The translations under genes were made by a program, and so were the position numbers. DNA of 16,548 nt from Escherichia phage vB_KppS-Ant. The stretch is from sequence record LR881103; one strand, given 5' to 3'. Below the pieces are notes generated by a model. That model was not told the DNA's origin. It saw nothing but the letters and a program-made list of their open reading frames with translations, and searched no databases. This document shows, piece after piece, positions 23-16,548 of the stretch. How positions within the stretch are numbered: position 1 is the stretch's first letter; every line of letters starts with the position of its first letter.

Positions 23-379
23 ATGGCAAGACCACCCAAACCGCCCGCTTACCTTGATGAAATCGCGGCGCAGCAGTGGAAAGCAAAGGCGAAGCAACTG
101 GCGGAACGCGGTGATCTGACGCCTGCCGACTGGAACAACCTTGAGCTTTATTGCGTCAACTACTCGATGTACCGCAAAGCCGTGAAGGACCTTGCCGCGC
201 GGGGATTCAGCATTGTGAACAGCCAGGGTGGTGAGAGTCGCAACCCGGCCCTGAGCGCAAAGGCTGATGCCGAAAAAATTCTCATAAAAATGTCGTCTCT
301 GCTGGGCTTTGATCCGGTAAGCCGTCGCCGCAACCCGCCTGAAACTGAAGAGGAAGACGAACTTGACCGCATGGAATGA
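23..379 (+). CDS. terS: Phage terminase small subunit (P27-like family)
   Basis: 118 aa; N-terminal PPKPPAYLD...W, central LTPAD...LE.YC and C-terminal NPAL...GFDPVSRRR pattern typical of P27-type small terminases; sits directly upstream of and overlapping the large terminase. Confidence 0.75.
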   Translation: MARPPKPPAYLDEIAAQQWKAKAKQLAERGDLTPADWNNLELYCVNYSMYRKAVKDLAARGFSIVNSQGGESRNPALSAKADAEKILIKMSSLLGFDPVSRRRNPPETEEEDELDRME

Positions 380-2024
380 TTACGCCATCGCCATAAAATC
401 GGGCGAAATTCCGGCCTGTAAGCGGGTAAAACAGGCCGTCGAAAGGTACTTTTCAGACCTGAATGACCCCCGTTACGTGTTCGATACAGCGACCGTAGAG
501 CGGTTTATTGCGTTCTCCCGGCTTTGTCCTCACGTCAAAGGGCCGTTGCGCGGTCAGCCTATCATGCTGGAGCCGTGGCAGCAGTTCGCCTTTGCTAACC
601 TGCTGGGCTTTAAGGTCAGTGCTACGGGGCGCAGGAAGTACAGCAGCGCCTTTATCGAGGTGCCGCGTAAGAATGCCAAATCCACCGTAGCTGCAATGCT
701 GGCTAACTGGTTTCTGGTGATGGAGCAGGGCCAGCAAGACATTTACACGGCGGCGGTGAGCCGGGATCAGGCTCGTATCGTGTTCGACGATGCCCGTCAG
801 ATGTGCCTGCTGTCAAAACCGCTGAAAAAGCGCGTGAATATTCAGGCTCATAAAATGATTTTCCCGAAGAATAACAGCCTGTTAAAGCCGCTGGCGGCGA
901 AAGCGGCCACCATCGAGGGGACGAATCCCAGCCTGGCTATTGTCGATGAGTACCACCTTCACCCGGATAACGGCGTTTACTCCGCACTTGAGCTGGGTAT
1001 GGGGGCACGTCCTGAAGCGGTTTTATTCGCCATCACCACCGCCGGGAGTAACGTTGTTTCTGCCTGCAAGCAGCATTACGACTACTGCTGTCAGATTCTG
1101 GCCGGGGAAGAGAGCAACGATTCGCTGTTTGTTCTGATTTACGAACTGGACGACGAAAGCGAGGTTGATCAGCCTGAAATGTGGATCAAGGCTAACCCGA
1201 ATCTGGATATCTCCGTTGATGCGGCAAAACTGGAGGCCACTATCCAGAAAGCACGGGGCATCCCGTCGCAATGGGTGGAGATGCTGACCAAACGTTTCAA
1301 TATCTGGTGTCAGGGTTCCACACCGTGGATGGGCGCGGGGGCCTGGGACGCCTGCAAACTCGACTATGAAGAAAGCGAGCTGGCCGGAATGGAATGTTAT
1401 GCAGGTCTGGACTTGTCCTCAACCAGCGATATCACCAGTGTAAATTACGCTTTTCCGTTCGACAGGGAGATTAGGTTACTGACAAGGCACTATCTGCCGG
1501 AAGCGACACTTAATAATGTTTCCAATAAAAACCGCGCCATTTACCGCCAGTGGGTGAAAGCAGGCTGGATTCGTACCACTCCCGGCGACTGCATCGATTA
1601 TGACCGCATCCGCGACGATATTCTGCGCGATGCCGAAACATTCAATATCCGTCTGGTGGGCTTCGATACGTGGAACGCCACGCATCTGCGTACCCAACTA
1701 CAGGGGGCGGGCCTTGAGGTAGAGCCGTTCCAGCAAACCTATCTTAAATTCAGCCCGGTAGCGAAATCGTTTGAAGTGTTCGTTAACCGCAAGGTGGTGC
1801 GCCATCGCGGCGATCCGGTACTGGCCTGGGCGATTGGTAACGTGGTGATGGAGTCCGACGCCAACGCCAATATCAAGCCCAACAAGAAGAAATCCTCCAA
1901 CAAGATTGATCCGGCAGTGGCTGCGTTAATGGCGTTCGGCACATTCCAGGCTGAGCATGAGGATTTTGCATTTGATATGAGCGAAAGCCACAAAGATCGC
2001 CTCAGTCATTTTGACGGGGTGTAA
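363..2024 (+). CDS. terL: Phage terminase large subunit (ATPase/nuclease)
   Basis: 553 aa; Walker A-like VPRKNAKST and Walker B-like LAIVDEYH; C-terminal nuclease-like region; TTG start overlapping the terS 3' end with AGGA 8 nt upstream. Confidence 0.85.
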   Translation: MTAWNDYAIAIKSGEIPACKRVKQAVERYFSDLNDPRYVFDTATVERFIAFSRLCPHVKGPLRGQPIMLEPWQQFAFANLLGFKVSATGRRKYSSAFIEVPRKNAKSTVAAMLANWFLVMEQGQQDIYTAAVSRDQARIVFDDARQMCLLSKPLKKRVNIQAHKMIFPKNNSLLKPLAAKAATIEGTNPSLAIVDEYHLHPDNGVYSALELGMGARPEAVLFAITTAGSNVVSACKQHYDYCCQILAGEESNDSLFVLIYELDDESEVDQPEMWIKANPNLDISVDAAKLEATIQKARGIPSQWVEMLTKRFNIWCQGSTPWMGAGAWDACKLDYEESELAGMECYAGLDLSSTSDITSVNYAFPFDREIRLLTRHYLPEATLNNVSNKNRAIYRQWVKAGWIRTTPGDCIDYDRIRDDILRDAETFNIRLVGFDTWNATHLRTQLQGAGLEVEPFQQTYLKFSPVAKSFEVFVNRKVVRHRGDPVLAWAIGNVVMESDANANIKPNKKKSSNKIDPAVAALMAFGTFQAEHEDFAFDMSESHKDRLSHFDGV

Positions 2025-4786: not shown

Positions 4787-4803
4787 TGAACCCAACCAAT
4801 CAA

Positions 4804-4837: not shown

Positions 4838-4849
4838 TGCGAGCCAACG

Positions 4850-4871: not shown

Positions 4872-4875
4872 CTAA

Positions 4876-5082: not shown

Positions 5083-5104
5083 TGTATAAACATTTGTATA
5101 AACA
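5083..5104. repeat. Tandem pair of TGTATAAACA decamers (right copy), just upstream of the integrase start
   Basis: tgtataaaca-tt-tgtataaaca at 5083..5104; candidate integrase arm-type sites. Confidence 0.7.
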
Positions 5105-5122
5105 CTTTGGGCTGGGTGGTCT

Positions 5123-6343
5123 ATGGCTGGCGAACTTAACAAACTGAGCGACAGGAAGTTAAAGGGATTACATGGTATCCCGGCCAGTAAGATTGAGTTC
5201 TATGCTGATGGTGCCGGGCTGAGCGCCAAGGTAACTAAAGCTGGTGGTATTAGCTGGGTGTTTACTTACCGACTCGACGGGCAGAAGCTGCATCGTCTTA
5301 CTCTGGGACGATACCCGGATATGAGCCTCAAAGAGGCCCGTTCTTCGCGTGATAAATGCCGCCAATGGCTGGCCTCAGGTAAAGATCCAAAGCACCAGTT
5401 GGCGCTGACCACTCAGGAAACGCTTAAACCGGTCACTGTTAAGGAAGCTATAGAATACTGGATACGCGAATATGCAGAAGAGAACCGCGCGAATGTTGAA
5501 CGGCACAAAGCGGAGCTGCGAAAACACATTTATCCTTATATAGGGAAAATGGCGCTCGCTGACTGTGAAACACGATACTGGCTTGACTGCTTTGACAGGA
5601 TGAAAAAGAAAACTCCAGTCGCCGCAGGTTATGTGTTCCAGATGTGCAAACAAGCCCTGAAATTCTGCCGGGTTCGTCGCTATGCTGTGAGTACCGCGCT
5701 TGAAGATTTAACAATTCCAGATGTCGGTAAAAAACAGGCAAAAAAAGACCGGGTATTAAACGATAAAGAGGCTGGCGATTTATGGGCTGCCATTTCCTCT
5801 GGCACTTGCTTCATGCCTTACTACACCAGGCTACTGACAATCTTAATGGTGTTTGGGTGCCGAACGCAGGAGGCCAGGCTATCAGAGTGGAGTGAATGGG
5901 ATATGGATGCCTGGGTCTGGACAGTTCCCAAAGAGCACAGCAAGGGCGGCGAGAAGATTGTAAGACCTGTGCCGGATGCCATGCGCAAATTCATTGAAAT
6001 ACTGCATGATGAAACGAAACGATCCGGCCTTTTGCTTGGGTCGGTTAAAGGCAGTGAAGCGGTAAGTCAGTGGGGCCGCGGTGTTTATAAAAAGCTGGGG
6101 CATTCTGAACCATGGACACTGCACGATCTAAGACGAACTTTAGCAACGCATATGAATAATATGGGTATAGCACCACACGTTGTCGAACAGTTGTTGGGGC
6201 ACTCAATGCCGGGAGTTATGGCGATTTATAACCGTAGTCTGTACTTGCCTGAGAAACTGGATGCGTTGAATAAATGGTATGACAGACTTGATATTTTATC
6301 AGGTGGATTCACTAACATTGTTTTGTTGAATAGGGCTGAATAA
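5123..6343 (+). CDS. int: Tyrosine site-specific integrase, P4-type (N-terminal arm-binding domain plus C-terminal catalytic domain)
   Basis: 406 aa; N-terminal L.D.K...GL.....G..W.F.YR..G.....LG.YP..SL.EAR...D pattern of P4-like integrases; C-terminal HDLRRT ... LLGH ... Y catalytic signature. Confidence 0.9.
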   Translation: MAGELNKLSDRKLKGLHGIPASKIEFYADGAGLSAKVTKAGGISWVFTYRLDGQKLHRLTLGRYPDMSLKEARSSRDKCRQWLASGKDPKHQLALTTQETLKPVTVKEAIEYWIREYAEENRANVERHKAELRKHIYPYIGKMALADCETRYWLDCFDRMKKKTPVAAGYVFQMCKQALKFCRVRRYAVSTALEDLTIPDVGKKQAKKDRVLNDKEAGDLWAAISSGTCFMPYYTRLLTILMVFGCRTQEARLSEWSEWDMDAWVWTVPKEHSKGGEKIVRPVPDAMRKFIEILHDETKRSGLLLGSVKGSEAVSQWGRGVYKKLGHSEPWTLHDLRRTLATHMNNMGIAPHVVEQLLGHSMPGVMAIYNRSLYLPEKLDALNKWYDRLDILSGGFTNIVLLNRAE

Positions 6344-6993
6344 TGACTAGTTTTCTAAAATTGGGTATTTTCGAGCGAGAAGCCAAAGCCCCGGAACTCA
6401 ATATTAAACAACTTGCACTACTTATGTGTGGGGTAGATCCGACAGTTAAAACTGCTGATATCCCTGAGGCGAAAGTTGAAGCTTACAATATATACTATCG
6501 ACAACTGAGTAGATGGTTATCAGCATCTAAATTATTTCGAGGTGGAAACTCAACAGCCTATCCCGCAGACTATATGTTTGCTCTGGCATATCCTCTTATT
6601 GATGAAGATATTACACCACAACCCATAAAGGACAGATGCCTTGCAGCGGTGGCTATAATTGCTAATCAAAACAAAGGAAAAGAGCATCTTTATGCTATGG
6701 GAGGGGATGAGCTTTTACAGGTCGGAATTGCATTGAAAAGCAGCAAACGCGGCTTGCATCGTAAAGAAGATGAAAAGGAATATAATGATAAATTAATGGG
6801 GATGCTGGTCAAGCTTATAGCACATAAGATAGGCCATTCGTTTGGCACCTCTAAAAAACCAAGCATCTCGGCTATTTTAAACGAACTATATAAATTAGCT
6901 GATGAGGAAGGTATATCTAAAACTGGATTATCCAAATCAGCAATATATGATAAAATTCGCAAGGCATTAAATTCGATTTATTATACGGAATGA
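6343..6993 (+). CDS. Hypothetical protein (216 aa), AT-rich cargo gene translationally coupled to int
   Basis: Start overlaps the int stop (TAATG); codon composition visibly more AT-rich than the neighbouring core genes; no recognisable catalytic motif. Confidence 0.55.
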   Translation: MTSFLKLGIFEREAKAPELNIKQLALLMCGVDPTVKTADIPEAKVEAYNIYYRQLSRWLSASKLFRGGNSTAYPADYMFALAYPLIDEDITPQPIKDRCLAAVAIIANQNKGKEHLYAMGGDELLQVGIALKSSKRGLHRKEDEKEYNDKLMGMLVKLIAHKIGHSFGTSKKPSISAILNELYKLADEEGISKTGLSKSAIYDKIRKALNSIYYTE

Positions 6994-7129
6994 ATATTAT
7001 TTTGCAGTGTTAGTGGGTGTTATTTATATTTCATGTGAAAATACTAATTAATTATATTTGTTGGAGCTTTTGGCGATTCTATGATCGCCAAGGAGATTCA
7101 ATTGTTATATTTGATGTTTATTACAGTTA

Positions 7130-7229
7130 CATTCAACAGCATTCAACAGCATTCAACAGCATTCAACGACACGTAACGACACGTAATGACACGTAACGGC
7201 ACCCGACAGCACCTAACAATACCTAGCTC
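7130..7229. repeat. Array of ten contiguous 10-bp units (CATTCAACAG x3, then progressively diverged copies)
   Basis: cattcaacag at 7130, 7140, 7150; cattcaacga, cacgtaacga, cacgtaatga, cacgtaacgg, cacccgacag, cacctaacaa, tacctagctc follow with strict 10-bp period. Confidence 0.8.
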
Positions 7230-7270
7230 CATCCACGGTCTCTACTAGGTCATTACTTGCTAACTTTTTC

Positions 7271-7337
7271 CATCTTTGTTCATGGTTATTCATCACTGTT
7301 CATCAGCGTTCATCATTGTTCATCTTTGTTATGAACA
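7271..7337. repeat. Second 10-bp-periodic array: TGTTCATC-type units (about 5 direct copies plus 1 inverted copy)
   Basis: catctttgtt catggttatt catcactgtt catcagcgtt catcattgtt catctttgtt then atgaaca; the unit is one mismatch from the TGTTCACC octamer clustered at 11720..11950. Confidence 0.75.
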
Positions 7338-7379
7338 ATCCAAGGCGAATCAAATCGTTAAAGAACGGTGATCTTCGGC

Positions 7380-7583
7380 GAGTTATTGAAATTCATGATT
7401 TTTTCTCTCGCGACAGCCGTTGAAATTACTGTGGAAATTGTTTTCAACAGGGGAGCGTTATCTTGATGGAATTTCTATCTTTCAATGGAATTGCGTGTTC
7501 TTTTAAAGGATTCCAGAATCAATGGAAATGCTGGTCGTTTATCCACTAATCTCTTCGCATAACATTGAAACAGTGGAGGCAGC
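7380..7583 (+). promoter_or_regulatory. alpA upstream regulatory region with dispersed TGGAA(A/T)T and TTGAAATT repeats
   Basis: gtggaaattg (7431), tggaattt (7467), caatggaattg (7483), caatggaaatg (7520); ttgaaatt at about 7386 and 7421; promoter not confidently placed. Confidence 0.3.
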
Positions 7584-7868
7584 ATGCAAAATATAACCTT
7601 TACCCCGCCAAATCCTGAACAACGCCGCACCCTTTTAGAAGAGTACGGCTTTAAGTTTGATCGCCGAATCCGTGAAGATGAATGCAGCGAGATCACCAGT
7701 CTTTCCCGTTCCAGCCGCTGGAAGATGGAACAGCAGGGGCGCTTCCCTCCGCGCTGTCACTTTGGCCGCAATAGCTGTGCTTGGCTTCTTTCGGATGTGC
7801 TCTGGTGGGTTCGTAATCCGCCAGCAGTAGAGAACGTCAATAACCCATACAGCCGTAAATCTGCTTAA
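7584..7868 (+). CDS. alpA: AlpA-family phage transcriptional regulator (excisionase-like HTH)
   Basis: 94 aa; ...SEITSLSRSSRWKMEQQGRFPPRCHFGRNSCAWLLSDVLWWVRN matches the AlpA-family HTH pattern; GGAGG RBS; position downstream of int as in P4-like and PICI elements. Confidence 0.7.
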   Translation: MQNITFTPPNPEQRRTLLEEYGFKFDRRIREDECSEITSLSRSSRWKMEQQGRFPPRCHFGRNSCAWLLSDVLWWVRNPPAVENVNNPYSRKSA

Positions 7869-7888
7869 TTAACCACAGGTAATCTGAG

Positions 7889-8581
7889 ATGAAAAAGATT
7901 AATGCCCTCCACGGGCAGGGATTCGCTCACCCTGTAGCCAGCCAGCACGATATTTCAGCGAACCGTAAACAGGTTATTGCCGGTGACTGGTCGCCCATTA
8001 ATCGCGGTGAATTTACGCTTGCCGATCTGGGGTTGCGCCACAACGGTAACGGGCTGGTGTGGCTGCGTTCCGGCGTGTCCGTGCATGAGGCAGACCATGA
8101 TGCAGGGATAAGCGGCAAGGACAAGACCAAAGGAAGGGTTAACGGCCTTCCTTTTGAATTTGTCGGCCAGTGGCAGGAATACCCGACTAAACGCAGCTTT
8201 GCCGTTTCAGTATCTACGGAACTACGGCGCCAGTATTACCCGGACGATGCCGCATTCAGTAAGGCAATGCGTGAGGCTGGTTATGTTCCGGTGCGCACTC
8301 GCAAACTGACCGGAAAGGATGCTCGTTTTTGGCTGTACCGTGTAACGGGCAATGATAAGGGGGTTGTCGCAGCAGAATCCGCGCCACACAAGGCTTGCGC
8401 GCCAGTTGTCCAGACCATATCTAAGCCTCATCCGTGGTTTAAGCGTGTGGCACTCGATGGTAAATGGCAGTACGTCTACGCAGATCACATCCGCTTTCTG
8501 ACTAAAAAGCGTCATCGCGTCGATGGTGTTCGGGTTCAGGGGTATACCGCTGGCGGGCTGAAAGTGGAGGCTATTGTATGA
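7889..8581 (+). CDS. Hypothetical protein (230 aa) between alpA and the replication module
   Basis: Protein-like composition; stop overlaps next potential start (ATGA); function not recognisable from sequence. Confidence 0.55.
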   Translation: MKKINALHGQGFAHPVASQHDISANRKQVIAGDWSPINRGEFTLADLGLRHNGNGLVWLRSGVSVHEADHDAGISGKDKTKGRVNGLPFEFVGQWQEYPTKRSFAVSVSTELRRQYYPDDAAFSKAMREAGYVPVRTRKLTGKDARFWLYRVTGNDKGVVAAESAPHKACAPVVQTISKPHPWFKRVALDGKWQYVYADHIRFLTKKRHRVDGVRVQGYTAGGLKVEAIV

Positions 8582-8593
8582 CAGGCAAAACAA

Positions 8594-8615
8594 AGGCGGC
8601 CATGCCGGGCCGCCT
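8594..8615. other. GC-rich hairpin (8-bp stem, 6-nt loop) right after the 7889..8581 stop; terminator-like for minus-strand readthrough
   Basis: AGGCGGCC-atgccg-GGCCGCCT; the U-tract lies on the minus-strand side (complement of aaaacaaa at 8586..8593). Confidence 0.35.
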
Positions 8616-8923
8616 GAGTCTCAACGCTTTACTGAAACATCGCCAGATTACCAGGCTTGCCGCTGGTGGTCAAACCTTGAGCCAACGAAATCCGTACGCA
8701 CAAATTAACCGCGTACGTTTAACGTACGGACATCGCAATCCATTGAAGGAACTTGATTATAACGAATCGTTAGAATCGGCTGGCAACAAACACGAACAGT
8801 ATTCGGGTTCGCCTGAACATCAACACTGCTTAGGTTCAGAGGTTCCGACGAATAACGTAGAGAGCTGCGAAGATAACCAACCCTCTTTAAGAGGTGAGCC
8901 TCTGCACAACGCATTAAGAGTTG

Positions 8924-8950
8924 CGCAAAACAACCCCTCTTTAAGAGGGG
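8924..8950 (-). terminator. Rho-independent terminator for the minus-strand RHH gene
   Basis: Minus-strand reading: CCCCTCTT-a-AAGAGGGG followed by ttgtttt, about 35 nt downstream of the 8982 stop; a second similar palindrome CCTCTTTAAGAGG lies at 8881..8894. Confidence 0.55.
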
Positions 8951-8981
8951 CAGTTCACAGCATTACGGAGAGTAACCCTGT

Positions 8982-9185
8982 TCAGCTTTCAGGTTCCGAT
9001 CTGGCTTTCTTGCGCTGCTCAGATTTGAGTTTGCGCCCGCAGGCATCCAGAACCCACGCAGAGAAATTAGCACCGGCGTTATCTGCTTTCTCTCGCTCTA
9101 CGCTGGCGTCAATCTCTTCAATAAGTTCGTGCGGAAATCGTATCTTTTTCTGCGCTGATTTAGCGTTTACTGCCTTAGTAGCCAT
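8982..9185 (-). CDS. Small ribbon-helix-helix-like DNA-binding protein (67 aa), candidate repressor
   Basis: KIRFPHELIEEIDASV...NFSAWVLDACGRKL fits a beta-strand / helix / helix RHH (Arc/CopG-like) layout; strong RBS AGGAGG 4 nt before ATG; own terminator; divergent from the replication operon promoter. Confidence 0.55.
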   Translation of the reverse strand: MATKAVNAKSAQKKIRFPHELIEEIDASVEREKADNAGANFSAWVLDACGRKLKSEQRKKARSEPES

Positions 9186-9198
9186 TTACCCTCCTGCG

Positions 9199-9271
9199 TA
9201 TAGTGAGGGTACACCATATCAGAAAAATAGCTTGACGTGTACCCCCACCGAAAATATAGTGGGGGTGCACC
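9199..9271 (+). promoter_or_regulatory. Near-consensus sigma70 promoter (TTGACG-17-TATAGT) overlapped by three operator-like 12-mers GTG(A/G)GGGT(A/G)CAC
   Basis: -35 TTGACG 9232..9237, 17-nt spacer, -10 TATAGT 9255..9260; 12-mers at 9203..9214 (+), 9237..9248 (inverted) and 9259..9270 (+); 17-bp direct repeat tatagtgagggtacacc / tatagtgggggtgcacc. Confidence 0.55.
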
Positions 9272-9363
9272 TTGAGGTTGAAGATACTCAAGATACAGCG
9301 AAGCCCGGCAGTGTTACCAGCACTAACCGGGCCTCTGACCACAACGTAACTGAGGCTTACATC

Positions 9364-9552
9364 ATGGCTTGTATACAGCATACCCAAACTCGCCCCAAAT
9401 ATCAGTATCGTTTTCTTGCGCTGAGCGCCATCGGGCGCAACGTCATTCACATCACCGCTACCACTGAGCGCGAAGCCCGTGAGCAATCACCGGATGGATG
9501 CGTGATGGTATTCGCTGGTCGTCTGCCAGTTCGGGAGGGGCACCATGCGTGA
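9364..9552 (+). CDS. Possible small leader protein (about 62 aa), 3' portion of the long ORF 8578..9552
   Basis: ATG at 9364 with GAGG 8 nt upstream, downstream of the 9232..9260 promoter; sequence MACIQHTQTRPKYQYRFLALSAIGRNVIHITATTEREAREQ... looks more protein-like than the upstream part of the frame. Confidence 0.3.
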   Translation: MACIQHTQTRPKYQYRFLALSAIGRNVIHITATTEREAREQSPDGCVMVFAGRLPVREGHHA

Positions 9553-9739
9553 GCCAATCAGCTTAGACCAGGCAGAATACAAATCAGCGCTGGCCGCTTC
9601 ACTCTTCGAAACCATCCTGGAAAAAGCCTCTGCTGAATGTTCAGAAACGCTGCTGAATCTGATTTCTATTGCGTGTGATTTTAATCAGGAAATTCACCGG
9701 GCATTAATCGCTGAGCTGGGTATGGGAGAAACGAAATGA
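9545..9739 (+). CDS. Hypothetical small acidic protein (64 aa)
   Basis: Translationally coupled (overlapping start/stop) within the replication operon; net acidic. Confidence 0.45.
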   Translation: MREPISLDQAEYKSALAASLFETILEKASAECSETLLNLISIACDFNQEIHRALIAELGMGETK

Positions 9740-9954
9740 GACAGGTTCCTTTTGAAGTCCTGATGCACGCTGAAAATGCCCTTTCTGAAAGCGAAGGAGC
9801 CTATGAGGTTCTCAGCATGTGGCTAGACAGTATTCCTGAAAGCGAGGAGTTCCACGGTGAAGCGTGCAAGGTAAGCGCAATCATGTCGCTGCTGCATAAA
9901 TCTATCGGCGAGCTGGTGAAAGCGCGGGAGGCTTACAGTGAAAAACGCGCCTAA
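9736..9954 (+). CDS. Hypothetical small acidic protein (72 aa)
   Basis: ATGA overlap with the upstream ORF; Glu-rich; overlaps the helicase start. Confidence 0.45.
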   Translation: MRQVPFEVLMHAENALSESEGAYEVLSMWLDSIPESEEFHGEACKVSAIMSLLHKSIGELVKAREAYSEKRA

Positions 9955-11689
9955 TGTGAAAACCCTCCCGCGCGACAAAATGGAGGAGGCCATCATCTTT
10001 GCTGGAACGGGAGCATGGAAAGCCGCTCAGGATTACCAGAAAGGGAAGGGCGAGCATGGAGACGATGTTCCGCCTGTGGTTCTGGATCACACCCAACTGG
10101 CGGAATTACCACACCTGCGCATTGTTGATAAAGGCCGTCGATTTGCCCGTGTCTGTCAGGCCGGGCTTATCGAGCAAAACCAAATCAGCATGATTGCAAA
10201 TAAGTTGTGTGAGGCTGGCGTTACCAATGCTGAGTTTATCAACGAACAAGGCGAGAAAGAGGACTGGACGCCATTGATGAAACGTCTGGAAGACGAGCCC
10301 CTTATGGTGACTACGAGGGGAAGTGCTACGCCAGCGCTTAACCAGATGGGAGCCAGCCAGCGCGGGGAAGTTCTGCTTGCTCATTACAATGGCAATCTGG
10401 CGATCCATGCTGATTCCGACACGGTTCATCATTACAACGGCGTGGTGTGGGTTCCGCTTTCGGATAAAGAGCTGCAGCGAGAAATGGCGCAGATTTTTAT
10501 TGATTCCGAAGTCGCCTATTCGCAGAACGCGATTAAATCCGCTGTCGATACAATGAAGCTGGGCCTCCCGGTAATGGGTAACACAGCCCGTAACCTGATT
10601 GGTTTCAGCAACGGGGTTTTTGATACCCGGTTAGGCCAATTTCGACCGCATGATAAAAAGGACTGGCTTATCGTTGCGAGCGAATTGCCATTCAGCGAAC
10701 CAGCAGAAGGTGAAACTCTGGCAACCCATGCGCCTAACTTCTGGAAATGGCTCCGCCGCTCTGTGGCGGATAATGACCGAAAAGCAGACCGCGTACTGTC
10801 TGCGCTGTTTATGGTGCTGGCGAACCGGTACGACTGGCAGCTGTTTCTTGAGGTAACGGGGCCGGGCGGAAGTGGTAAAAGTGTCATGGCTGAGATCTGC
10901 ACGATGCTGGCGGGCAAGGCCAATACGGTATCGGCGAGCATGGCGGCGCTGGAGAACCCAAGGGAAAGGGCGCTGGTAGTTGGCTATTCGCTGATTATCA
11001 TGCCGGATATGACCCGGTACGCTGGCGACGGCGCAGGGATTAAAGCTATCACTGGCGGGGATAAGGTGGCTATCGACCCAAAACACAAAGCGCCATATTC
11101 AACCCGTATCCCGGCGGTGGTGCTGGCCGTCAATAACAATGCTATGACGTTCAGTGACCGCAGCGGCGGTATTTCAAGGCGACGGGTGATTTTCAACTTC
11201 ACCGAAGTAGTGCCGGAAAACGAACGCGATCCGATGCTGGCCGAGAAGATTGAAGGAGAGCTTGCGGTAATCATCCGGCATCTGCTTGTGCGCTTTTCCA
11301 GCCAGAACGAAGCCAAACAGCTTTTGCATGAGCAGCAGAAATCAGAAGAAGCGCTGGCCATCAAACGTGAAGGGGATTCACTGGTGGACTTTTGCGGATA
11401 CCTGATGGCTTCGGTGGTTTGTGATGGAATGCTGATTGGTAATGCCGAGATCGTGCCATTCAGCCCGCGCCGTTATCTGTATCACGCTTATCTGGCTTAC
11501 ATGCGGGCCAATGGTCTTAGCAAGCCTGTATCGTTAATGCGGTTCGGTACGGATATGCCAGGCGCAATGGCTGAATATGGCAAGGAGTACCAGAAGCGCA
11601 AAACTAAAAATGGCATAAGATCGAACGTCACCCTGCATGATGATTCAGAAGACTGGATGCCAATGTGTACCGATACAACAAAAGAATAA
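9938..11689 (+). CDS. Replication protein: P4-alpha / D5-family SF3 helicase (phage/plasmid primase C-terminal type), probable origin-binding initiator
   Basis: 583 aa; Walker A GPGGSGKS about 300 aa in; D5_N-like region upstream (HYNGVVWVP); GTG start with GGGAGG RBS; iteron cluster immediately downstream. Confidence 0.8.
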   Translation: MKNAPNVKTLPRDKMEEAIIFAGTGAWKAAQDYQKGKGEHGDDVPPVVLDHTQLAELPHLRIVDKGRRFARVCQAGLIEQNQISMIANKLCEAGVTNAEFINEQGEKEDWTPLMKRLEDEPLMVTTRGSATPALNQMGASQRGEVLLAHYNGNLAIHADSDTVHHYNGVVWVPLSDKELQREMAQIFIDSEVAYSQNAIKSAVDTMKLGLPVMGNTARNLIGFSNGVFDTRLGQFRPHDKKDWLIVASELPFSEPAEGETLATHAPNFWKWLRRSVADNDRKADRVLSALFMVLANRYDWQLFLEVTGPGGSGKSVMAEICTMLAGKANTVSASMAALENPRERALVVGYSLIIMPDMTRYAGDGAGIKAITGGDKVAIDPKHKAPYSTRIPAVVLAVNNNAMTFSDRSGGISRRRVIFNFTEVVPENERDPMLAEKIEGELAVIIRHLLVRFSSQNEAKQLLHEQQKSEEALAIKREGDSLVDFCGYLMASVVCDGMLIGNAEIVPFSPRRYLYHAYLAYMRANGLSKPVSLMRFGTDMPGAMAEYGKEYQKRKTKNGIRSNVTLHDDSEDWMPMCTDTTKE

Positions 11690-11719
11690 AGGCGGGGAAA
11701 ATTAAAAGTAATGGGATAA

Positions 11720-11950
11720 GTGTTCACCACTGTTCACCATGTATAAAAATCATTAAATAACAATATGTTAATGGGTGAACACTTTTTTATGAAGTGTTCA
11801 CCAAGTATTCACCTGTTCACCCTGTTTTATCTTTTCCTCAGTTTGAGGTGAAGGGTTGGGTGAACACTAGTGAACACCTGAAAGAATAGTATTCACCCTG
11901 TAACTATATGAATTTAATTAATAAATTATCAAAGGTGAACAGGTGAACAC
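11720..11950. promoter_or_regulatory. Origin-like iteron cluster: at least 10 copies of TGTTCACC / GGTGAACA (and the TATTCACC variant) in both orientations in AT-rich DNA
   Basis: Copies at about 11721, 11731, 11774 (inv), 11794, 11805 (variant), 11814, 11859 (inv), 11869 (inv), 11889 (variant), 11934 (inv), 11942 (inv). Confidence 0.65.
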
Positions 11951-12095
11951 TTAAACGTATATTTTTTAATTTTATTGAGCAACGCAGGATCACTTCCAGC
12001 CTGGAATACCTGGGATCAATCATGGAACACGCACCGTGGAATATTAAAAGCTAATATTTTTGTAAATTATTTGTATTCATGTTTACTCATTCTTA

Positions 12096-12123
12096 CCCCC
12101 GTCTTTTGCGGGGGTTTTCTTTA
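12096..12123 (+). terminator. Rho-independent terminator between the replication and head modules
   Basis: CCCCCG-tcttttg-CGGGGG (6-bp GC stem) followed by ttttcttt. Confidence 0.6.
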
Positions 12124-12289
12124 TATTTTTCATGTATATCTTGAAGAGTGGCACTCAGACGTGAGCCGCCACTGGCCGTTAAGTCAAGCTGTAGCGAGTA
12201 CAGCCTGCGAGAGGCAGAAAAAGATTTAACGGCCTCCCCTCCAAGCGCTGGTTTCACGTCTCTACATTAATTGATACGGAAACCACTCC

Positions 12290-13450
12290 ATGAAGAAACT
12301 ACTCGAATTACGCCAGCAGAAAGCCGCACTCAAAACACAGATGCGTTCCATGCTGGACAAAGCCGACACCGAAAAGCGCAGCCTGAACGAAGAAGAGGGC
12401 AAAAAGTTCGACGAACTCCGCGCACAGGCTGATGCGCTTGAAGTTGAAATCAACCGCCTTGAAGCCGTCGCCGAAGATCAGCGCAATCTGCCTGGTACTT
12501 CCGTTGAAGGTGATCCAGTAAGCAACGACGAGCTGCGCCACTACATCATGACCGGTGATACCCGTTCTCTCTCCACGCTGGTGCAGGCTGACGGCGGTTA
12601 TACCGTTATCCCTGAGCTGGACAAAGAGATTATGCGCCAGTTGCAGGATGATAGCGTGATGCGCTCCATCGCAACGGTGAAGACCACCAAAACCAACGAA
12701 TACCAGAAGCTGGTATCTGTGGGCGGCACTACCGTTAATCGTGGTACCGAAGGTGAGGCACGTACCGAAACCAGTACGCCGAAGATGGAGCGCGTTGATA
12801 TCAAACTCAACCCGATCTACGCCTACCCGAAAACCACTCAGGAGATTCTCGACTTCTCCGAGGTGGATATTTTGGGCTGGCTGTCTTCTGAAATTGCCGA
12901 CACCTTCACCGCGACCGAAGAAAGCGACTTTGTGAACGGCGACGGTGATAAAAAATCCAAAGGCTTCCTGTCTTACCCTCGCGCGGCCACTGCCGACAAA
13001 ACCCGTCCGTTCGGTACGCTGGAGAAGATGGAAGCGGCTGACGTTTCCTCTGATGGCCTGATCGACCTGCTGTATAAGCTGAAAGCCAAATACCGCAAAA
13101 ACGCCGTATGGGTGATGAACTCCAACACCGCAGCCAAACTGCAAAAGCTGAAAAACGGCAACGGGGATTACATCTGGCGCGATCGTCTGGTTGCCGGTTC
13201 TCCCGATACCCTGCTGGGCCGTCCGGTTCAGTACCTTGAAACCATGCCTGATGCTGATGCCGGAGAAGCGTTCCTCGCGGTTGGCGACTTCAAGCGCGGT
13301 TACTTCATCGTGGATCACACTACTGGTGTGCGTACCCGCCCTGACAACATCACCGAGCCGGGCTTCTATAAGGTTCACACCGATAAATATCTGGGCGGCG
13401 GCGTGGTGGACTCCAACGCGATCAAGATTCTGGAGCTTGCTGGTTCCTGA
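12290..13450 (+). CDS. Major capsid protein, HK97 fold/family
   Basis: 386 aa; N-terminal coiled-coil delta-domain-like region (KKLLELRQQKAALKTQ...), then ADGGYTVIPELDKEI and the overall HK97-family pattern. Confidence 0.85.
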   Translation: MKKLLELRQQKAALKTQMRSMLDKADTEKRSLNEEEGKKFDELRAQADALEVEINRLEAVAEDQRNLPGTSVEGDPVSNDELRHYIMTGDTRSLSTLVQADGGYTVIPELDKEIMRQLQDDSVMRSIATVKTTKTNEYQKLVSVGGTTVNRGTEGEARTETSTPKMERVDIKLNPIYAYPKTTQEILDFSEVDILGWLSSEIADTFTATEESDFVNGDGDKKSKGFLSYPRAATADKTRPFGTLEKMEAADVSSDGLIDLLYKLKAKYRKNAVWVMNSNTAAKLQKLKNGNGDYIWRDRLVAGSPDTLLGRPVQYLETMPDADAGEAFLAVGDFKRGYFIVDHTTGVRTRPDNITEPGFYKVHTDKYLGGGVVDSNAIKILELAGS

Positions 13451-13460
13451 TTCGACGTGT

Positions 13461-13477
13461 GAGGGGCTTCGGCCCCT
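13461..13477 (+). other. Stable hairpin with UUCG tetraloop between capsid and protease genes (possible attenuator or mRNA stabiliser)
   Basis: AGGGGC-ttcg-GCCCCT; only a short U-run follows. Confidence 0.35.
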
Positions 13478-13501
13478 TTCTGCCCTCTGTGGAGTCCAAT
13501 A

Positions 13502-14062
13502 ATGAAAACAATAGATTTTGAAATCCGCACCTCTGAACTGACCGCTACTGATAAGAAGCTGGTGGGCTATGCCGTGCGCTGGAACAGTCTGTCAGAAATC
13601 ATCTGGGATGAATTCAGGGAACAGTTCGCGCCGGGAGCGTTTAAAGACAGCCTGGCATCCGGTAGCGATGTGCGGGCGTTGTATGAGCATAACTATACCC
13701 AACTGCTGGGACGTACCAAATCTGGCACGCTGGTGCTGTCAGAAGATGATACCGGGCTGCGCTTTGAGCTGACGCCGCCGAATACTCAGCTTGGTAATGA
13801 TGTGCTGGCGCTGGTGGAACGTGGCGATCTTTCAGGTATGAGCTTTGGTTTCCGTGCGCTGAAAGAGTCCTGGGATATTGCGCAATCCCCGTACCTGCGA
13901 ACAGTGACCGCTGCCGAACTACGGGAAATCACCGTTACTTCCATGCCTGCTTACCCTGAATCCGGCGTGGAAATCGCGCACCGTTCGCTTTTCTCCCAAC
14001 ATCCTGAACTGCGCCGCGCTGGCGATAACCGTCGCCGCTGGGCTGAATTAGCGGGGCTCTGA
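13502..14062 (+). CDS. Prohead maturation protease, HK97 family
   Basis: 186 aa; GYAVRWN..., YEHNYTQLLGRT (His), LSEDDTGLRF, GMSFGF (Ser) pattern. Confidence 0.8.
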   Translation: MKTIDFEIRTSELTATDKKLVGYAVRWNSLSEIIWDEFREQFAPGAFKDSLASGSDVRALYEHNYTQLLGRTKSGTLVLSEDDTGLRFELTPPNTQLGNDVLALVERGDLSGMSFGFRALKESWDIAQSPYLRTVTAAELREITVTSMPAYPESGVEIAHRSLFSQHPELRRAGDNRRRWAELAGL

Positions 14063-14063
14063 T

Positions 14064-15299
14064 ATGTGGAATATCTGGCCGTTTGGCCGTAAGTCTGAAC
14101 CCTCTGAGCAGCGCAGCATGACCATTGATGAATTTCTGGCGATGGCAGGGATTCCAAATACCGGATCAGGCGAGTATGTGTCTGCGGGTACTGCGGAATC
14201 TCTGCCGGCGGTAATGAACGCCGTATCAGTTATCAGTGAGGCGGTGGCAACAATGCCCTGCTACCTCTACCGCGTGCGCAACGATAACGGGCGTGAGGCG
14301 CGGGAATGGCTGAGCAATCACCCGGTGGATTTTCTGCTGAATGAGCAGCCGAATATTTGCCAGACGCCTTACCAGTTCAAGCGCACGATGATGCGCCACT
14401 GTCTGCTGAACGGTAACGCCTATGCGGTGATCCAGTGGGGCCGCGACGGCCAGCCACAATCCCTGCATCCGTATGCGCCGGGGGCGGTTGTTCCTGAGCG
14501 TATCGGCGAGCATAAGTACAAATACACCATCACTGAGCCGTTTACCGGGGCTGTACGTACCTATTTGCAGGAAGAGATTCTGCACCTGCGTTATTCCACC
14601 GATGACGGTTTTCTGGGGCGCTCGCCGATCACCATTTGCCGGGAGGCGCTGGGGTTAGGTCTGGCCCAACAGCGCCACGGTGCCAGCATTATGAAAGATG
14701 GCATGATGGCGGCGGGCGTCATTACGGCTAAAGAATGGCTGGATAGCGTTAAAGGGAAAAGTGCACTTGAGGCGCTGGAGCGCTACAAAGGTGCAAGGAA
14801 TGCCGGGAAAACGCCGATCCTTGAAGGGGGGATGGACTACAAACAGCTTGGCATGAGCAATCAGGATGCCGAGTGGCTGGCCTCCCGCCGTTTCACCATT
14901 GAAGATATTGCCCGCATGTTCAACGTGTCGCCCATCTTCCTGCAGGAATACAGCAACAGCACCTACAGCAACTTCAGCGAGGCAAGCCGCGCTTTTCTCA
15001 CCATGACTATGCGCCCGTGGCTGGCGAACTTCGAGCAGCAGATTAAATCCGCGCTGCTGGTGGCTTCTCCTGTGCCGGGTATTCGTTATCAGGTGGAATT
15101 TGATTCCGCTGACCTTCTCCGCGCTACTCCTACCGAACGCTACGCAACCTATGAGCGCGGCATCAAGAACGGGATCATGAATCCTAACGAGGCTCGCGAG
15201 CGTGAGGGCATGGCACCGCGTGAAGGCGGTGACGAGTTCAGCCAGGCATGGAAGCAGGAAGTCACTGTGAGCAAGGGCAATAAGGATGGTGACGAATGA
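14064..15299 (+). CDS. Portal protein, HK97 family
   Basis: 411 aa; AVMNAVSVISEAVATMP and ARMFNVSPIFL segments typical of HK97-type portals. Confidence 0.8.
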   Translation: MWNIWPFGRKSEPSEQRSMTIDEFLAMAGIPNTGSGEYVSAGTAESLPAVMNAVSVISEAVATMPCYLYRVRNDNGREAREWLSNHPVDFLLNEQPNICQTPYQFKRTMMRHCLLNGNAYAVIQWGRDGQPQSLHPYAPGAVVPERIGEHKYKYTITEPFTGAVRTYLQEEILHLRYSTDDGFLGRSPITICREALGLGLAQQRHGASIMKDGMMAAGVITAKEWLDSVKGKSALEALERYKGARNAGKTPILEGGMDYKQLGMSNQDAEWLASRRFTIEDIARMFNVSPIFLQEYSNSTYSNFSEASRAFLTMTMRPWLANFEQQIKSALLVASPVPGIRYQVEFDSADLLRATPTERYATYERGIKNGIMNPNEAREREGMAPREGGDEFSQAWKQEVTVSKGNKDGDE

Positions 15300-15637
15300 A
15301 AGCCGGAAAGATGAAACGCCGCGTCACTATTCAGCAGTTCGTCAGTCACCAGGACCCGAACACGGGGTCAGTCACTAAAGAATGGCGCGATGTTGCCACC
15401 GTTTGGGGGGAGATAGACAGCGTAAGCGGGCGGGAGCTTGTAGCCGCCCAGGCTGAACAGTCAGAGATGACAGTCAGAATCTGGATTCGCTATCGCAAAG
15501 GCGTTACCACCAAAAACAGACTGACCTGCACAGAAAAAGGAATGCCTGTAACCATCTACGACATCAAAGCTGTTCTGCCTGATGCAGATCGTACCCGCCT
15601 TGAAATTATGTGCACCGGAGGGCTGACCAGTGGCTGA
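15296..15637 (+). CDS. Head-tail adaptor / head closure protein (SPP1 gp16-like head-tail joining family)
   Basis: 113 aa; RRVTIQ...D..G....W..V..VWGEI....GRE........MTVRIWIRYR pattern; ATGA overlap with the portal stop. Confidence 0.65.
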   Translation: MKAGKMKRRVTIQQFVSHQDPNTGSVTKEWRDVATVWGEIDSVSGRELVAAQAEQSEMTVRIWIRYRKGVTTKNRLTCTEKGMPVTIYDIKAVLPDADRTRLEIMCTGGLTSG

Positions 15638-15923
15638 AACTATTGAACTTGCTGAAGCAAAACTTCACTGCCGTATTGATGGCGATGATGAAGATTTGCT
15701 CATTCAGGCTTACATCGATGCGGCTCTGGAGGTTTGCCAGAAACATATCGGCAAGCGGTTTGATAGTGGGCTGGAGCTTACCCCGGCTATCAAAATCGGT
15801 TGCCTGATGTACGTCTCTCAGTTGTACGAGTACCGCACGATGATTAGCGATGTGGAGGCGAAAGAGGTTCCTCTTGCTGTCTCAGCGCTGTGGTCTGTCT
15901 ATCGTGACGTGGGGGTGTACTGA
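15630..15923 (+). CDS. gp6-like head-tail connector protein
   Basis: 97 aa; LAEAKLHCRIDGDDEDLLIQAYIDAA...; GTG start overlapping the upstream gene. Confidence 0.65.
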   Translation: MAETIELAEAKLHCRIDGDDEDLLIQAYIDAALEVCQKHIGKRFDSGLELTPAIKIGCLMYVSQLYEYRTMISDVEAKEVPLAVSALWSVYRDVGVY

Positions 15924-16366
15924 TGCCGTGGCAACCCTTACGCCGTTGCACTGAGCCGGGATGCAACAAGCGCGTGAAGTCTGGTAAATGCGATGAGCAT
16001 AAACGGGAGGTGTGGCGGGCACAGGATGCCAGACGCGGCCACCGTCGCGCCCGTGGTTACTCAGCAGCATGGGAGAAGTATCGCGCCCAGTATCTAAAAC
16101 GCTATCCCCTGTGCGCTGAGTGCCAGAAGCAGGGCCTCTTCGTTCCTGCAAAGATTGTCGATCACATCATCCCTATCGACGGCGGTGATGATGTTCTGTT
16201 CTGGCCTGAGTGGAATCACCAGCCGTTATGCCAGACGCATCATAACCAGAAGACCACACAGCAAGACCCTATCACCAAAGCCAATCGCAAAGCGGGGATG
16301 TACCACGAGCAGGAAGAGCGGGCAGCACAGCGCAATAACTGGATGTATGAGGTTGATCATGAATGA
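15923..16366 (+). CDS. HNH endonuclease (terminase-associated type)
   Basis: 147 aa; Cys pairs CTEPGC and CAECQ plus DHIIPIDGGDD...NHQPLCQTHHNQK HNH signature. Confidence 0.85.
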   Translation: MPWQPLRRCTEPGCNKRVKSGKCDEHKREVWRAQDARRGHRRARGYSAAWEKYRAQYLKRYPLCAECQKQGLFVPAKIVDHIIPIDGGDDVLFWPEWNHQPLCQTHHNQKTTQQDPITKANRKAGMYHEQEERAAQRNNWMYEVDHE

Positions 16367-16511
16367 GAAAGACGTGGTGAATCTGTATCAGTCGCTGGCC
16401 CGATGCCGTGATGGCTTCATGCAGACCCGCACCAGACGCGATGAGCGCCAGCCTGTGCAGCGCATGAGTGAGCGTGACCGGGAGTTGCGGGAATGCTTCC
16501 GCAACCGCTGA
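16359..16511 (+). CDS. Hypothetical small Arg-rich protein (about 50 aa), internal start of ORF 16155..16511
   Basis: ATG at 16359 overlaps the HNH stop; GAGG 6 nt upstream. Confidence 0.35.
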   Translation: MNEKDVVNLYQSLARCRDGFMQTRTRRDERQPVQRMSERDRELRECFRNR

Positions 16512-16548
16512 CAGGCCGCACCGATGGGGTGGGGGAGGTTTTCAGGAC

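Follow-up and report, generated by a model that had tools for sequence, protein, structure and literature searches.

The arrangement of the head genes in this DNA raises two questions: why the major capsid gene comes first, and what is done by the hairpin that follows it. The window, by which we mean the whole stretch of 16,548 nt analysed here, was described at first pass as carrying a head module in reversed order with a hairpin after the capsid gene. Both questions are taken up below, starting with the element that carries the module.

Identity of the window and its head genes

Comparison with Klebsiella pneumoniae ATCC 13883 reveals the source of the window. The comparison, which covers the window up to position 4952 and from 8405 on, gives 0 mismatches to scaffold KN046818.1 over 6,896 + 4,952 nt; another stretch of this scaffold, retrieved on its own, is identical to window positions 8405-12281 at 3,877 of 3,877 nt. 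The island lies beside fis in ATCC 13883, and its relatives in E. coli are inserted between yhdJ and fis. ATCC 13883 is a strain that we take to be the same as DSM 30104, and the 100% match to its fis-adjacent island therefore identifies the window as the capsid-forming PICI (cf-PICI) KpCIDSM30104. The window is almost certainly the excised, cos-opened form of this K. pneumoniae element, carrying the proteobacterial cf-PICI head-gene order; 69 nt of the chromosomal copy, at cos, are missing from it.

The integrase, alpA regulation and pri-rep/ori replication modules of a cf-PICI are all present. Profile searches find an integrase (PF00589/PF13356), an AlpA-family protein of 94 aa (PF05930) and a D5-type primase-helicase on the island, and the replication origin holds at least 13 GGTGAACA iterons at 11718-11952. 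With the 69 nt missing at cos added, the length lies within the ~10-18 kb given for cf-PICIs (10.1101/2025.02.11.637232). Pfam and PHROG profiles returned zero matches to lysis genes or a tail module among the scanned ORFs of the window. This absence, the AlpA, integrase and pri-rep backbone, and the identity to a named cf-PICI rule out that we are dealing with a small phage instead of a satellite. The element is in fact already known: KpCIDSM30104 and EcCIEDL933 are reported, on experimental grounds, to make their own small capsids and to borrow only tails (10.1101/2025.02.11.637232). One full-length tape-measure-like gene is a caveat to the absence of a complete tail module, and we found no mention of it in the cf-PICI papers searched.

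The HK97-family capsid, S78 protease and portal genes are all there (PF05065, PF04586 and PF04860), and the families proposed at first pass for the adaptor and the connector are confirmed by profile search (PF05521 and PF05135). In the cf-PICI papers the Hc1 gene is named the adaptor and the Ad1 gene the connector; the order of this pair is swapped relative to HK97 gp6/gp7. Relatives from E. coli have the 50-aa ORF in their annotation, and gene calling finds it in the copy from Klebsiella as well. The adjacency of HNH to terS and terL runs across the ends of the window only, and it is contiguous in the integrated copy. The sole non-coding gap of the module is the 51 nt between the capsid and protease genes, all other junctions overlapping or being 1 nt apart.

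Table 1 Features of the window that bear on head-gene order and capsid expression
Feature	Position	Strand	Evidence or remark
terS, P27-family small terminase	23..379	+	PF05119, E 3e-25
terL, large terminase	363..2024	+	PF03354 + PF20441; phrog_9, E 1e-177
Tape-measure-like gene, full-length	2036-4333		phrog_2854, E 2e-176
Intrinsic-terminator-like hairpin ACCCCCG-loop-CGGGGGT + TTTTCTTT	12095..12115	+	Between ori and capsid leader; called by terminator scan
Conserved box ATATTTTTCATGTATATCTTGAAGA, upstream of leader	12123..12147	+	Candidate promoter/regulator site; conserved across genera
Leader hairpin H1, GTGGC-A-CUCA[GACG]UGAG-CC-GCCAC	12148..12172	+	Invariant GACG loop
Leader hairpin H2	12174..12234	+	Long stem of variable sequence with covarying 9-bp base
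Leader hairpin H3	12249..12285	+	5' strand with invariant GGUUUCACGUC box; 3' strand over weak Shine-Dalgarno-like region before capsid AUG
Major capsid protein, HK97 fold family	12290..13450	+	PF05065, E 1e-68; phrog_10
Post-capsid hairpin GAGGGGC-UUCG-GCCCCUU, then UCUGCC	13461..13478	+	Intrinsic-terminator-like element of the family, U-tract weakened in this copy
Prohead serine protease S78	13502..14062	+	PF04586, E 1e-47
Portal protein	14064..15299	+	PF04860, E 6e-95
Head completion/closure Hc1	15296..15637	+	PF05521 Phage_HCP, E 1e-26; phrog_25
gp6-like head-tail connector Ad1	15630..15923	+	PF05135, E 4e-10; phrog_40, E 7e-33
HNH endonuclease of the packaging machine	15923..16366	+	PF01844; phrog_144, E 6e-42
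Conserved 50-aa ORF, between HNH and cos	16359..16511	+	phrog_3173, E 2e-27

Order of the head genes

Profile searches on the window, with the integrated copy showing that the two ends join, give the order capsid-protease-portal-Hc1-Ad1-HNH-50-aa ORF-cos-terS-terL. As had been noted from the letters of the DNA, the capsid gene is the first one past the replication module and ori, and the order is unlike that of HK97-like phages: in HK97, YeP1, SfI and contigs of distant viruses the genes are arranged as terS-terL-portal-protease-capsid-Ad1-Hc1, a canonical order that the window does not have. Phages with related capsids (at most 40% identity) have the canonical order as well. The module shares with HK97 and HK022 the Pfam families of the capsid, S78 protease, portal, gp6-like connector, head closure protein and terminase large subunit, a small terminase is encoded in both, and in both a GC-rich hairpin with a T-run lies directly 3' of the capsid gene. 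It differs from HK97 in having capsid-protease-portal-Hc1-Ad1 upstream of HNH-cos-terS-terL and in a capsid that is only ~23% identical locally, and from HK97 and HK022 in the absence of tail or lysis genes save the tape-measure-like one. The HNH gene of HK97 lies, we presume, at the right genome end adjoining cos, which would yield the same circular adjacency.

The first-pass annotation had proposed a synteny comparison with cf-PICIs and HK97-like phages, an apt one, for it shows the order to be the published cf-PICI organisation. Over 200 cf-PICI-type loci from Enterobacterales and Pasteurellaceae were fetched; the full capsid-first order is found in 163, and the remaining loci have consistent partial orders with zero exceptions. 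It is retained in E. coli islands of three lineages and in the Pasteurella "phage" Pmp8, and the proteobacterial cf-PICIs KpCIDSM30104, EcCIEDL933 and EcCIGN02175 have the window order throughout. These comparisons show that the head-gene order was fixed in the ancestor of the lineage and has been maintained since. The capsid-first order is given explicitly in the literature as the arrangement that proteobacterial cf-PICIs conserve (bioRxiv 10.1101/2022.09.08.507074; 10.1101/2025.02.11.637232); it is an already known hallmark, with no novelty. Together with HNH-terS-terL it provides a reliable sequence signature that separates cf-PICI satellites from small phages, and the GenBank "phage" records Pasteurella Pmp8 and Salmonella S.Kent 1-2-1 appear to be cf-PICI-type satellites.

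The hairpin after the capsid gene

Taken in the window alone, the hairpin is not significant. It has a 7-bp stem (5 G-C/C-G pairs), a UUCG loop and an energy of -12.5 kcal/mol, as expected of a terminator stem (GC-rich, at least 5 bp, loop of 3-8 nt). The U-tract falls short of 5 T in 8 nt, with 4 of 8, or 3 of 8 if counted past the full stem, and the T-run of this copy (TTTCTG) is the lowest among 29 representatives. The fold of 70 nt scores z = -1.05; about 18 comparable hairpins exist on the + strand of the window, and against block shuffles the post-capsid one is unexceptional. A terminator consensus scan did not call it, and its discriminant score, which is in the style of d'Aubenton-Carafa but computed with present-day energy parameters and serves only to rank copies, is borderline here and terminator-like for most relatives. 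As the hairpin is unexceptional in the single sequence, the case rests on comparative evidence.

This evidence is extensive. A GC-rich hairpin (GGGGC-loop-GCCCC stem and T-run) is found 4-15 nt past the capsid stop in 210 of 212 cf-PICI loci, and 27 of the 29 representatives have 5-7 T in the 8 nt past the stem, so that the family as a whole does carry the U-tract. The core stem is near-invariant, with the compensatory variants GGAGGAGGC/GCCUCCUU, CGGGGC/GCCCCG and GGGGGC/GCCCCC, and there are 20 different loops among the 29 representatives. The hairpin noticed at first pass is thus a conserved element, while its UUCG tetraloop is merely one of ~20 loops. That it is a chance structure or a neutral relic without function today is disfavoured, and very improbable in our estimate: the z-score, the many similar hairpins of the window and the weak U-tract of its copy would agree with such a relic, but not the same position in nearly all loci, kept even in lineages in which the surrounding intergenic sequence no longer aligns, nor a stem preserved by compensatory variants while the loops vary freely.

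The hairpin is not a part of the reversed order. HK97, of canonical order, has an annotated putative terminator (5192-5213) directly past the capsid gene, gene 5; SPP1 has a terminator at 8775-8815 directly past gene 13 (PMC6316719), and the T7-like phage LUZ100 a strong one directly past its capsid gene (PMC10134795). The last two cases surfaced apart from a literature search on post-capsid stem-loops and mRNA stability, which found none. Phages of canonical order thus have the hairpin behind their capsid gene too, and it is uninformative on why the order was reversed; it belongs to the capsid gene. In all of these phages, as in the window, a stem-loop with a U-run lies just 3' of the most abundant structural gene within a polycistronic late unit. 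The window differs in that the remaining head and packaging genes all follow the stem-loop, and not the connector and tail genes alone, and in a U-tract degraded to UUUCUG. The finding of order and hairpin therefore amounts to a rediscovery of the published cf-PICI signature on a studied element, with a post-capsid hairpin of a kind common in phages.

A role for the hairpin can be proposed. The head and packaging module appears to be a separate expression unit, divided from ori by the 12095-12115 hairpin, and its capsid AUG is preceded by a conserved box and what is probably a structured leader (12123-12285). The capsid gene would have brought the post-capsid hairpin with it from an ancestor of HK97 type, in which this element adjoins gene 5. 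It may stop some transcripts, block 3' exonucleases, or both, and capsid mRNA would thereby exceed that of the downstream genes. Such an excess would fit the need for ~240 capsid subunits per T=4 shell against ~12 portal subunits; a T=4 shell of 240 copies has been shown for EcCIEDL933, and tailed phages generally have roughly 12 portal subunits. High capsid and lower protease and portal expression through the hairpin, as suggested at first pass, is plausible as a putative effect. The predicted function as a partial terminator (attenuator) or mRNA stabiliser has, in our view, an even chance of being right. Its location in the sole intergenic gap of the module speaks for an attenuator, whereas the window copy, with the weakest T-run, the borderline score and no call by the consensus scan, counts against one. 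All essential packaging genes are downstream, and the 24 nt to the protease AUG leave no room for a new promoter; any termination must therefore be incomplete or be bypassed. Were the operon transcribed by an antiterminated polymerase (AlpA-like or Q-like), ratios would hardly be changed by the hairpin. The account as a whole, joining the KpCIDSM30104 order to a terminator-like post-capsid hairpin with an attenuator or stabiliser role, we consider moderately probable.

The capsid leader and possible control of the module

The timing and balance of capsid-gene expression are not addressed in the cf-PICI papers searched, and neither the post-capsid hairpin nor the leader was found mentioned there. 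The 12095-12115 hairpin at the head of the unit is conserved in close relatives. A promoter scan gave no convincing sigma-70 promoter upstream of the capsid gene, with no good match in the ATATTTTTCATGTATATCTTGAAGA box; for the TGTATATC box, spacing checked by hand did not fit one either. Positions 12148-12285 form a predicted conserved structured RNA, supported by covariation. The exact H1 23-mer, itself the search pattern by which loci with a window-type leader were retrieved and hence identical in all of them, is present in 27 loci from many Enterobacterales species, in 24 of them 123-145 nt upstream of the capsid start. Among 21 leaders representing many genera, compensatory changes affect 8 of the 9 base pairs at the base of H2. 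In EDL933-type islands H1 covaries but retains the GACG loop, and the H3-equivalent hairpin is followed by U7-8. The CGUC in the 5' strand of H3 could pair alternatively with the H1 loop. In a search of 50,697 phage records the leader matched 2, both containing the cf-PICI module itself. Rfam gave 0 matches for the whole window at gathering score and, for the leader at an E-value threshold, only sub-threshold hits, all on the 12095 terminator.

Two adjacent stem-loops opening a transcription unit that contains a terminator recall the put RNA of HK022, a putative likeness for the leader. H1 and H2 are adjacent and span 87 nt; put sites have two stem-loops of ~70 nt just past a promoter, and no convincing promoter is seen at the leader. 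As a relative in sequence, the HK022 put RNA or PR'/Q region was rejected: neither a search that allowed up to 3 mismatches nor short-word BLAST gave a match to HK022, putL when read directly is unrelated in sequence, and the leader differs further in having no Rfam match.

Tentatively, and with less confidence than we place in the attenuator, we propose that enterobacterial cf-PICIs gate the capsid module by this RNA leader, a putative riboregulatory or antitermination switch with flanking terminator-like hairpins. The GGUUUCACGUC box of H3 would have two alternative pairing partners, the H1 loop and the ribosome-binding region, and the H3 of EDL933-type islands would be a full terminator with U8. 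This is where induction would turn capsid production on, whether through AlpA, through a helper factor or through an action of capsid protein on the mRNA that encodes it. With such a switch the capsid-first order would make sense, the most-needed gene being placed directly under it.

Less likely still is that the post-capsid hairpin serves as an insulating terminator bypassed after induction, which would be no stoichiometry device and would produce no expression step. With the 12095-12115 terminator, and with H3-U8 in EDL933-type islands, it would silence protease to terL in uninduced cells, and upon induction a terminator-resistant polymerase loaded by the island AlpA, a helper Q-like factor or the leader RNA would read through. 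Terminator-like hairpins on either side of the capsid gene and the position of every essential gene beyond the second one agree with this, as does the PF05930 protein of the island. In P. aeruginosa, AlpA is known to act by processive antitermination: its loading site is a GGGACG element within a promoter, and it overcomes an intrinsic terminator located further downstream (PMC7969949, PMC9371919). The GACG core of the leader resembles this element, and GACG/CGTC is invariant (CAGACG in the window, AGGACG in EDL933-type islands). However, a motif match of 4 nt counts for little, the promoter scan identified no sigma-70 promoter that contains such an element, and similarity to HK022 putL or the PR' region is absent. 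In addition, P. aeruginosa AlpA, set beside the window protein by length only, is apparently longer (DNA-contact residues 128-142), and its N-terminal segment forms the ring in the RNA exit channel. Partial attenuation is compatible with insulation, and both could hold.

The order itself may have no bearing on an expression gradient. With a probability that we put slightly below even, it is a frozen accident that goes back to the founding recombination: on capture of an HK97-like module by a PICI, the morphogenesis genes were put together anew a single time, and rare operon rearrangements and tight overlaps have preserved the result. Its invariance over all fetched cf-PICI-type loci of Enterobacterales and Pasteurellaceae fits a single ancestry, the genes of the module overlap or abut, and the hairpin travels with the capsid gene under either order. 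Firmicutes cf-PICI groups, of independent origin, have other orders, with portal-protease-capsid first or HNH-terS-terL first (10.1101/2022.09.08.507074); as these are reported to be the same kind of element, capsid-first is not required. An adaptive arrangement would nevertheless look alike, with retention across hosts whose capsid proteins share only 62-70% identity, a capsid gene close to the promoter, and conservation of both leader and terminator. The terminator-leader-capsid-terminator layout offers a concrete and testable handle on cf-PICI capsid expression.

Identity and gene content of the island

The ORF listing and profile searches identify the window as a complete small mobile element. 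Its exact tape-measure-like protein is encoded on scaffold KN046818.1 of Klebsiella pneumoniae ATCC 13883, where the gene series runs pri-rep, capsid, protease, portal, HCP, connector, HNH, the 50-aa ORF, terS, terL and the tape-measure-like gene, followed by chromosomal fis. Window positions 9653-16548 correspond to 1-6896 of this locus and positions 1-4952 to 6966-11917, each with 0 mismatches, and a second stretch fetched from the same scaffold is identical to window 8405-12281 over 3,877 of 3,877 nt. ATCC 13883 is the K. pneumoniae type strain, DSM 30104, and the window is therefore KpCIDSM30104. This capsid-forming phage-inducible chromosomal island (cf-PICI) has been studied experimentally (bioRxiv 10.1101/2025.02.11.637232).

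Features of the island in window coordinates
Feature	Position	Remarks
terS	23-379	
terL	363-2024	
Tape-measure-like protein	2036-4333	765 aa
Two small ORFs		
att segment	~4875-4952	
Tyrosine integrase	5123-6343	
AlpA-family regulator	7584-7868	
D5-type primase-helicase	9938-11689	
Replication origin	11718-11952	iteron-rich, AT-rich DNA directly 3' of the primase-helicase gene
Intrinsic-terminator-like hairpin	12095-12115	canonical, TTTTCTTT tail; between ori and capsid leader
Conserved upstream box	12123-12147	
H1	12148-12172	GACG loop invariant in both lineages
H2	12174-12234	free sequence
Pyrimidine tract		between H2 and H3
H3	12249-12285	5' strand is the GGUUUCACGUC box; 3' strand over a weak Shine-Dalgarno-like region
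Capsid	12290-13450	PF05065
Post-capsid hairpin	13461-13478	GAGGGGC-UUCG-GCCCCUU
S78 protease	13502-14062	
Portal	14064-15299	
Head-completion protein	15296-15637	PF05521
gp6-like connector	15630-15923	PF05135
HNH	15923-16366	
Conserved 50-aa ORF	16359-16511	phrog_3173, E 2e-27; overlaps the HNH end
cos junction	16512-16548 joined to 1-22	

The window represents the island after excision, with the break in the cos region, between the 50-aa ORF and terS. The head and packaging module runs on past the ends of the window to include terS and terL. A segment of roughly 78 bp matches both ends of integrated relatives and is therefore the core of att in the excised circle; its copy in the chromosome abuts fis. 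At the cos junction 69 nt (GAACACGAGGGCGCC...GAAAATAAA) are absent compared with the chromosomal copy and relatives, a gap that could have arisen at the ends when packaged linear DNA was assembled.

The adaptor and connector labels of the first-pass annotation agree with the profile matches and with the naming in the cf-PICI papers (Hc1 and Ad1 in PHROGs). The usual gene lists leave out the 50-aa ORF, which makes a ninth conserved member of the packaging module; it is annotated in E. coli relatives and is among the genes called in the Klebsiella copy. The origin holds at least 13 copies of the iteron GGTGAACA/TGTTCACC, in both orientations. The ORF at 8578-9552 (324 aa) is probably over-extended; its family match (phrog_1743) is limited to the last ~60 residues, and a short Icd-like gene is annotated at the equivalent position in E. 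coli relatives.

The tape-measure-like gene is full-length (phrog_2854, E 2e-176) and lies directly after terL, in a satellite type defined as having no tail module. Its product is 63% identical to the tape-measure proteins of the Klebsiella siphophages KpF5 and KPP5665-2, and over the N-terminal 440 aa it shares 50% identity with that of HK022, a reported tail donor for KpCIDSM30104. The gene occurs in just 2-3 of ~80 close relatives, and in one E. coli relative the slot is taken by a 'tail assembly protein'.

Order of the head genes

The first-pass annotation had claimed that the head genes keep their orientation and differ in order from those of HK97-like phages. Every gene does retain its orientation, and the difference in order is borne out against HK97, HK022, YeP1, SfI and distant viral contigs. 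HK97 and HK022 run terS, terL, portal, protease, capsid, Ad1, Hc1. The Yersinia phage YeP1 and SfI, whose capsid sequences place them among the closest true phages, with an identity of just 34-40%, follow the HK97 order through capsid and then carry a gp6-like (Ad1) homologue; the distant contigs fetched (36-57 kb) have the HK97 order too. The position of HNH in HK97 is presumably such that a circular HNH-cos-terS-terL adjacency would match the window. Compared with HK97, the morphogenesis block of the window lies upstream of HNH and is internally re-ordered. Because every gene retains its orientation, a single inversion cannot yield the cf-PICI order.

The order is constant across ~210 cf-PICI-type loci drawn from IMG/VR, three lineages of E. 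coli islands and the Pasteurella 'phage' Pmp8; 163 of these present the full eight-gene series, and the others are contigs cut short whose partial series agree with it. Of the 5,426 complete E. coli genomes, 534 contain a relative of the module, chromosomal in every case. The cf-PICI paper spells out the module order, ending in hnh-terS-terL, and notes that phage and PICI modules 'have different genetic organisations' (10.1101/2022.09.08.507074); the same ordered gene list is a search criterion in the later paper (10.1101/2025.02.11.637232). The condition for refutation set in the first pass gives a divided outcome: the capsid-first order is not the norm of helper phages, but it is the known norm of the satellite family. 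The finding as first described is already known. The observation is confirmed, and the interpretation attached to it is partly supported.

Some cf-PICIs are without the PF05521 head-completion gene (loci L083, from E. coli SMS-3-5, L067, L075 and L213); in these the gp6-like connector directly follows the portal gene.

The hairpin behind the capsid gene

The hairpin reported after the capsid stop is present, 10 nt 3' of the stop codon in a 51-nt gap that is the sole non-coding gap of the module. In the window sequence alone it is not exceptional: its fold has z = -1.05, ~18 hairpins of similar strength lie on the same strand, and a terminator scan of the window did not call it. Among relatives, 210 of 212 cf-PICI loci have a GC-rich hairpin at a distance of 4-15 nt from the capsid stop, on its 3' side, the two exceptions being a point mutant and a locus where the script apparently missed the true capsid stop. 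The sequences behind the capsid gene comprise 58 distinct ones. Across 29 representatives the GGGGC/GCCCC core of 5 bp hardly varies, with 20 different loops of 4-7 nt and a closing pair that is A-U, G-C, C-G or G-U; the SMS-3-5 lineage has the compensated stem GGAGGAGGC/GCCUCCUU. The 8 nt after the stem contain 5-7 T in 27 of the 29, and 4 T in the window, the joint-lowest value. A d'Aubenton-Carafa-style terminator discriminant, which served just to rank the copies, places the window as borderline and most relatives as clearly positive. Conservation, the stem and loop pattern and the T-run across relatives argue that the hairpin is, at the family level, a predicted intrinsic-terminator-like element, of which the window copy has a degraded U-tract.

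Canonical-order phages possess such elements as well. The HK97 record annotates a putative terminator (5192-5213, GGGCGGG-GAAA-CCCGCCC-UUUU) directly after gene 5, strong post-capsid hairpins occur in SfI, YeP1 and two distant phage contigs, and in SPP1 a terminator is predicted to start with the stop codon of gene 13 (PMC6316719). The T7-like phage LUZ100 has a strong terminator immediately behind its capsid gene (PMC10134795). The hairpin accompanies the capsid gene and is not peculiar to the reversed order. What differs from the phages is that in cf-PICIs the protease, portal, connectors, HNH and terminase all lie downstream of it.

Capsid is the first gene of the module, the conserved terminator-like hairpin then follows, and the 24 nt from there to the protease gene leave no space for a promoter. 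The T=4 shell of EcCIEDL933 contains 240 capsid subunits. The hairpin could halt part of the polymerases, shield the 3' end of a capsid-only mRNA, or both, and capsid message would then exceed that for proteins required in ~12 copies or catalytically. We judge the chances of such an attenuating or stabilizing role to be evenly balanced. The main rival, which we hold to be rather improbable, takes the hairpins as insulators through which a terminator-resistant polymerase reads after induction; in its favor, the island encodes an AlpA-family protein, and AlpA of P. aeruginosa is a processive antiterminator (PMC7969949, PMC9371919). As to the order itself, a single ancestral rearrangement, since frozen, fits the data as well as adaptation does, and the Firmicutes cf-PICIs, of independent origin, have other orders (10.1101/2022.09.08.507074).

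A structured leader ahead of the capsid gene

The 175 nt between the hairpin at 12095-12115, on which weak sub-threshold sRNA-family matches fall, and the capsid AUG are strongly structured (MFE -65.6 kcal/mol, z = -5.6; none of 200 shuffles reaches this stability). The leader of EDL933-type islands, a second lineage otherwise unalignable, gives z = -5.5. In a 22-sequence alignment the leader pairs in 93.1% of cells, against 83.5 ± 0.7% in shuffles (none of 500 comes up to the observed figure) and just 32-49% in slid controls, with 14 double-change pairs against 7.3 ± 1.5 in shuffles. The exact H1 23-mer recurs in 27 loci, 24 of them with it 123-145 nt upstream of the capsid start, in Serratia, Proteus, Hafnia, Erwinia, Pantoea, Pectobacterium, Kosakonia, Citrobacter, Klebsiella and others; the GGUUUCACGUC box, which was not part of this selection, is invariant there too, and the H2 foot of these leaders shows compensatory changes at 8 of 9 base pairs. 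The leader is widely distributed across Enterobacterales cf-PICIs.

A predicted alternative long-range helix between the H1 loop region and the CGUC box is supported: 88% of cells pair, compared with 22-58% in slid controls, and the pairs flanking it show covariation from one lineage to the other, which counts as one evolutionary event. EDL933-type islands have U7-8 after H3, immediately before the AUG, and H3 would therefore be both a terminator-like hairpin and a mask of the ribosome-binding site. No Rfam family matches the leader, and it bears no resemblance to HK022 put or PR'. Among 50,697 phage records just two match, both containing the cf-PICI module. Promoters, transcripts and leaders are not mentioned in 10.1101/2022.09.08.507074 or 10.1101/2025.02.11.637232. 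We read the whole stretch from box to capsid AUG (12123-12289) as a candidate cis-regulatory leader of the capsid module. Its GACG core resembles the P. aeruginosa AlpA element GGGACG, a lead rather than a test. Leader and tape-measure-like accessory gene are the parts of the window that merit a separate look.

Pasteurellaceae cf-PICIs (L143, L161, L114 and others) show two layouts. One places an additional gene immediately ahead of capsid; in the other, a short leader contains a good sigma-70-like promoter (TTTACT-N17-TATATT), a pair of small hairpins and a CGTCT motif recalling the enterobacterial CACGTCT box.

Several GenBank 'phage' records resemble or contain a cf-PICI (OR544139, which is locus L089, Pmp8; OR850982; PQ569648). 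Pasteurella phage Pmp8 (15.3 kb) is organized like a satellite, Salmonella phage S.Kent 1-2-1 consists of a 3.8-kb piece of a cf-PICI module, and in Klebsiella phage P12620-1 (106 kb) the module sits at the extreme end of the sequence, perhaps through a mis-join.
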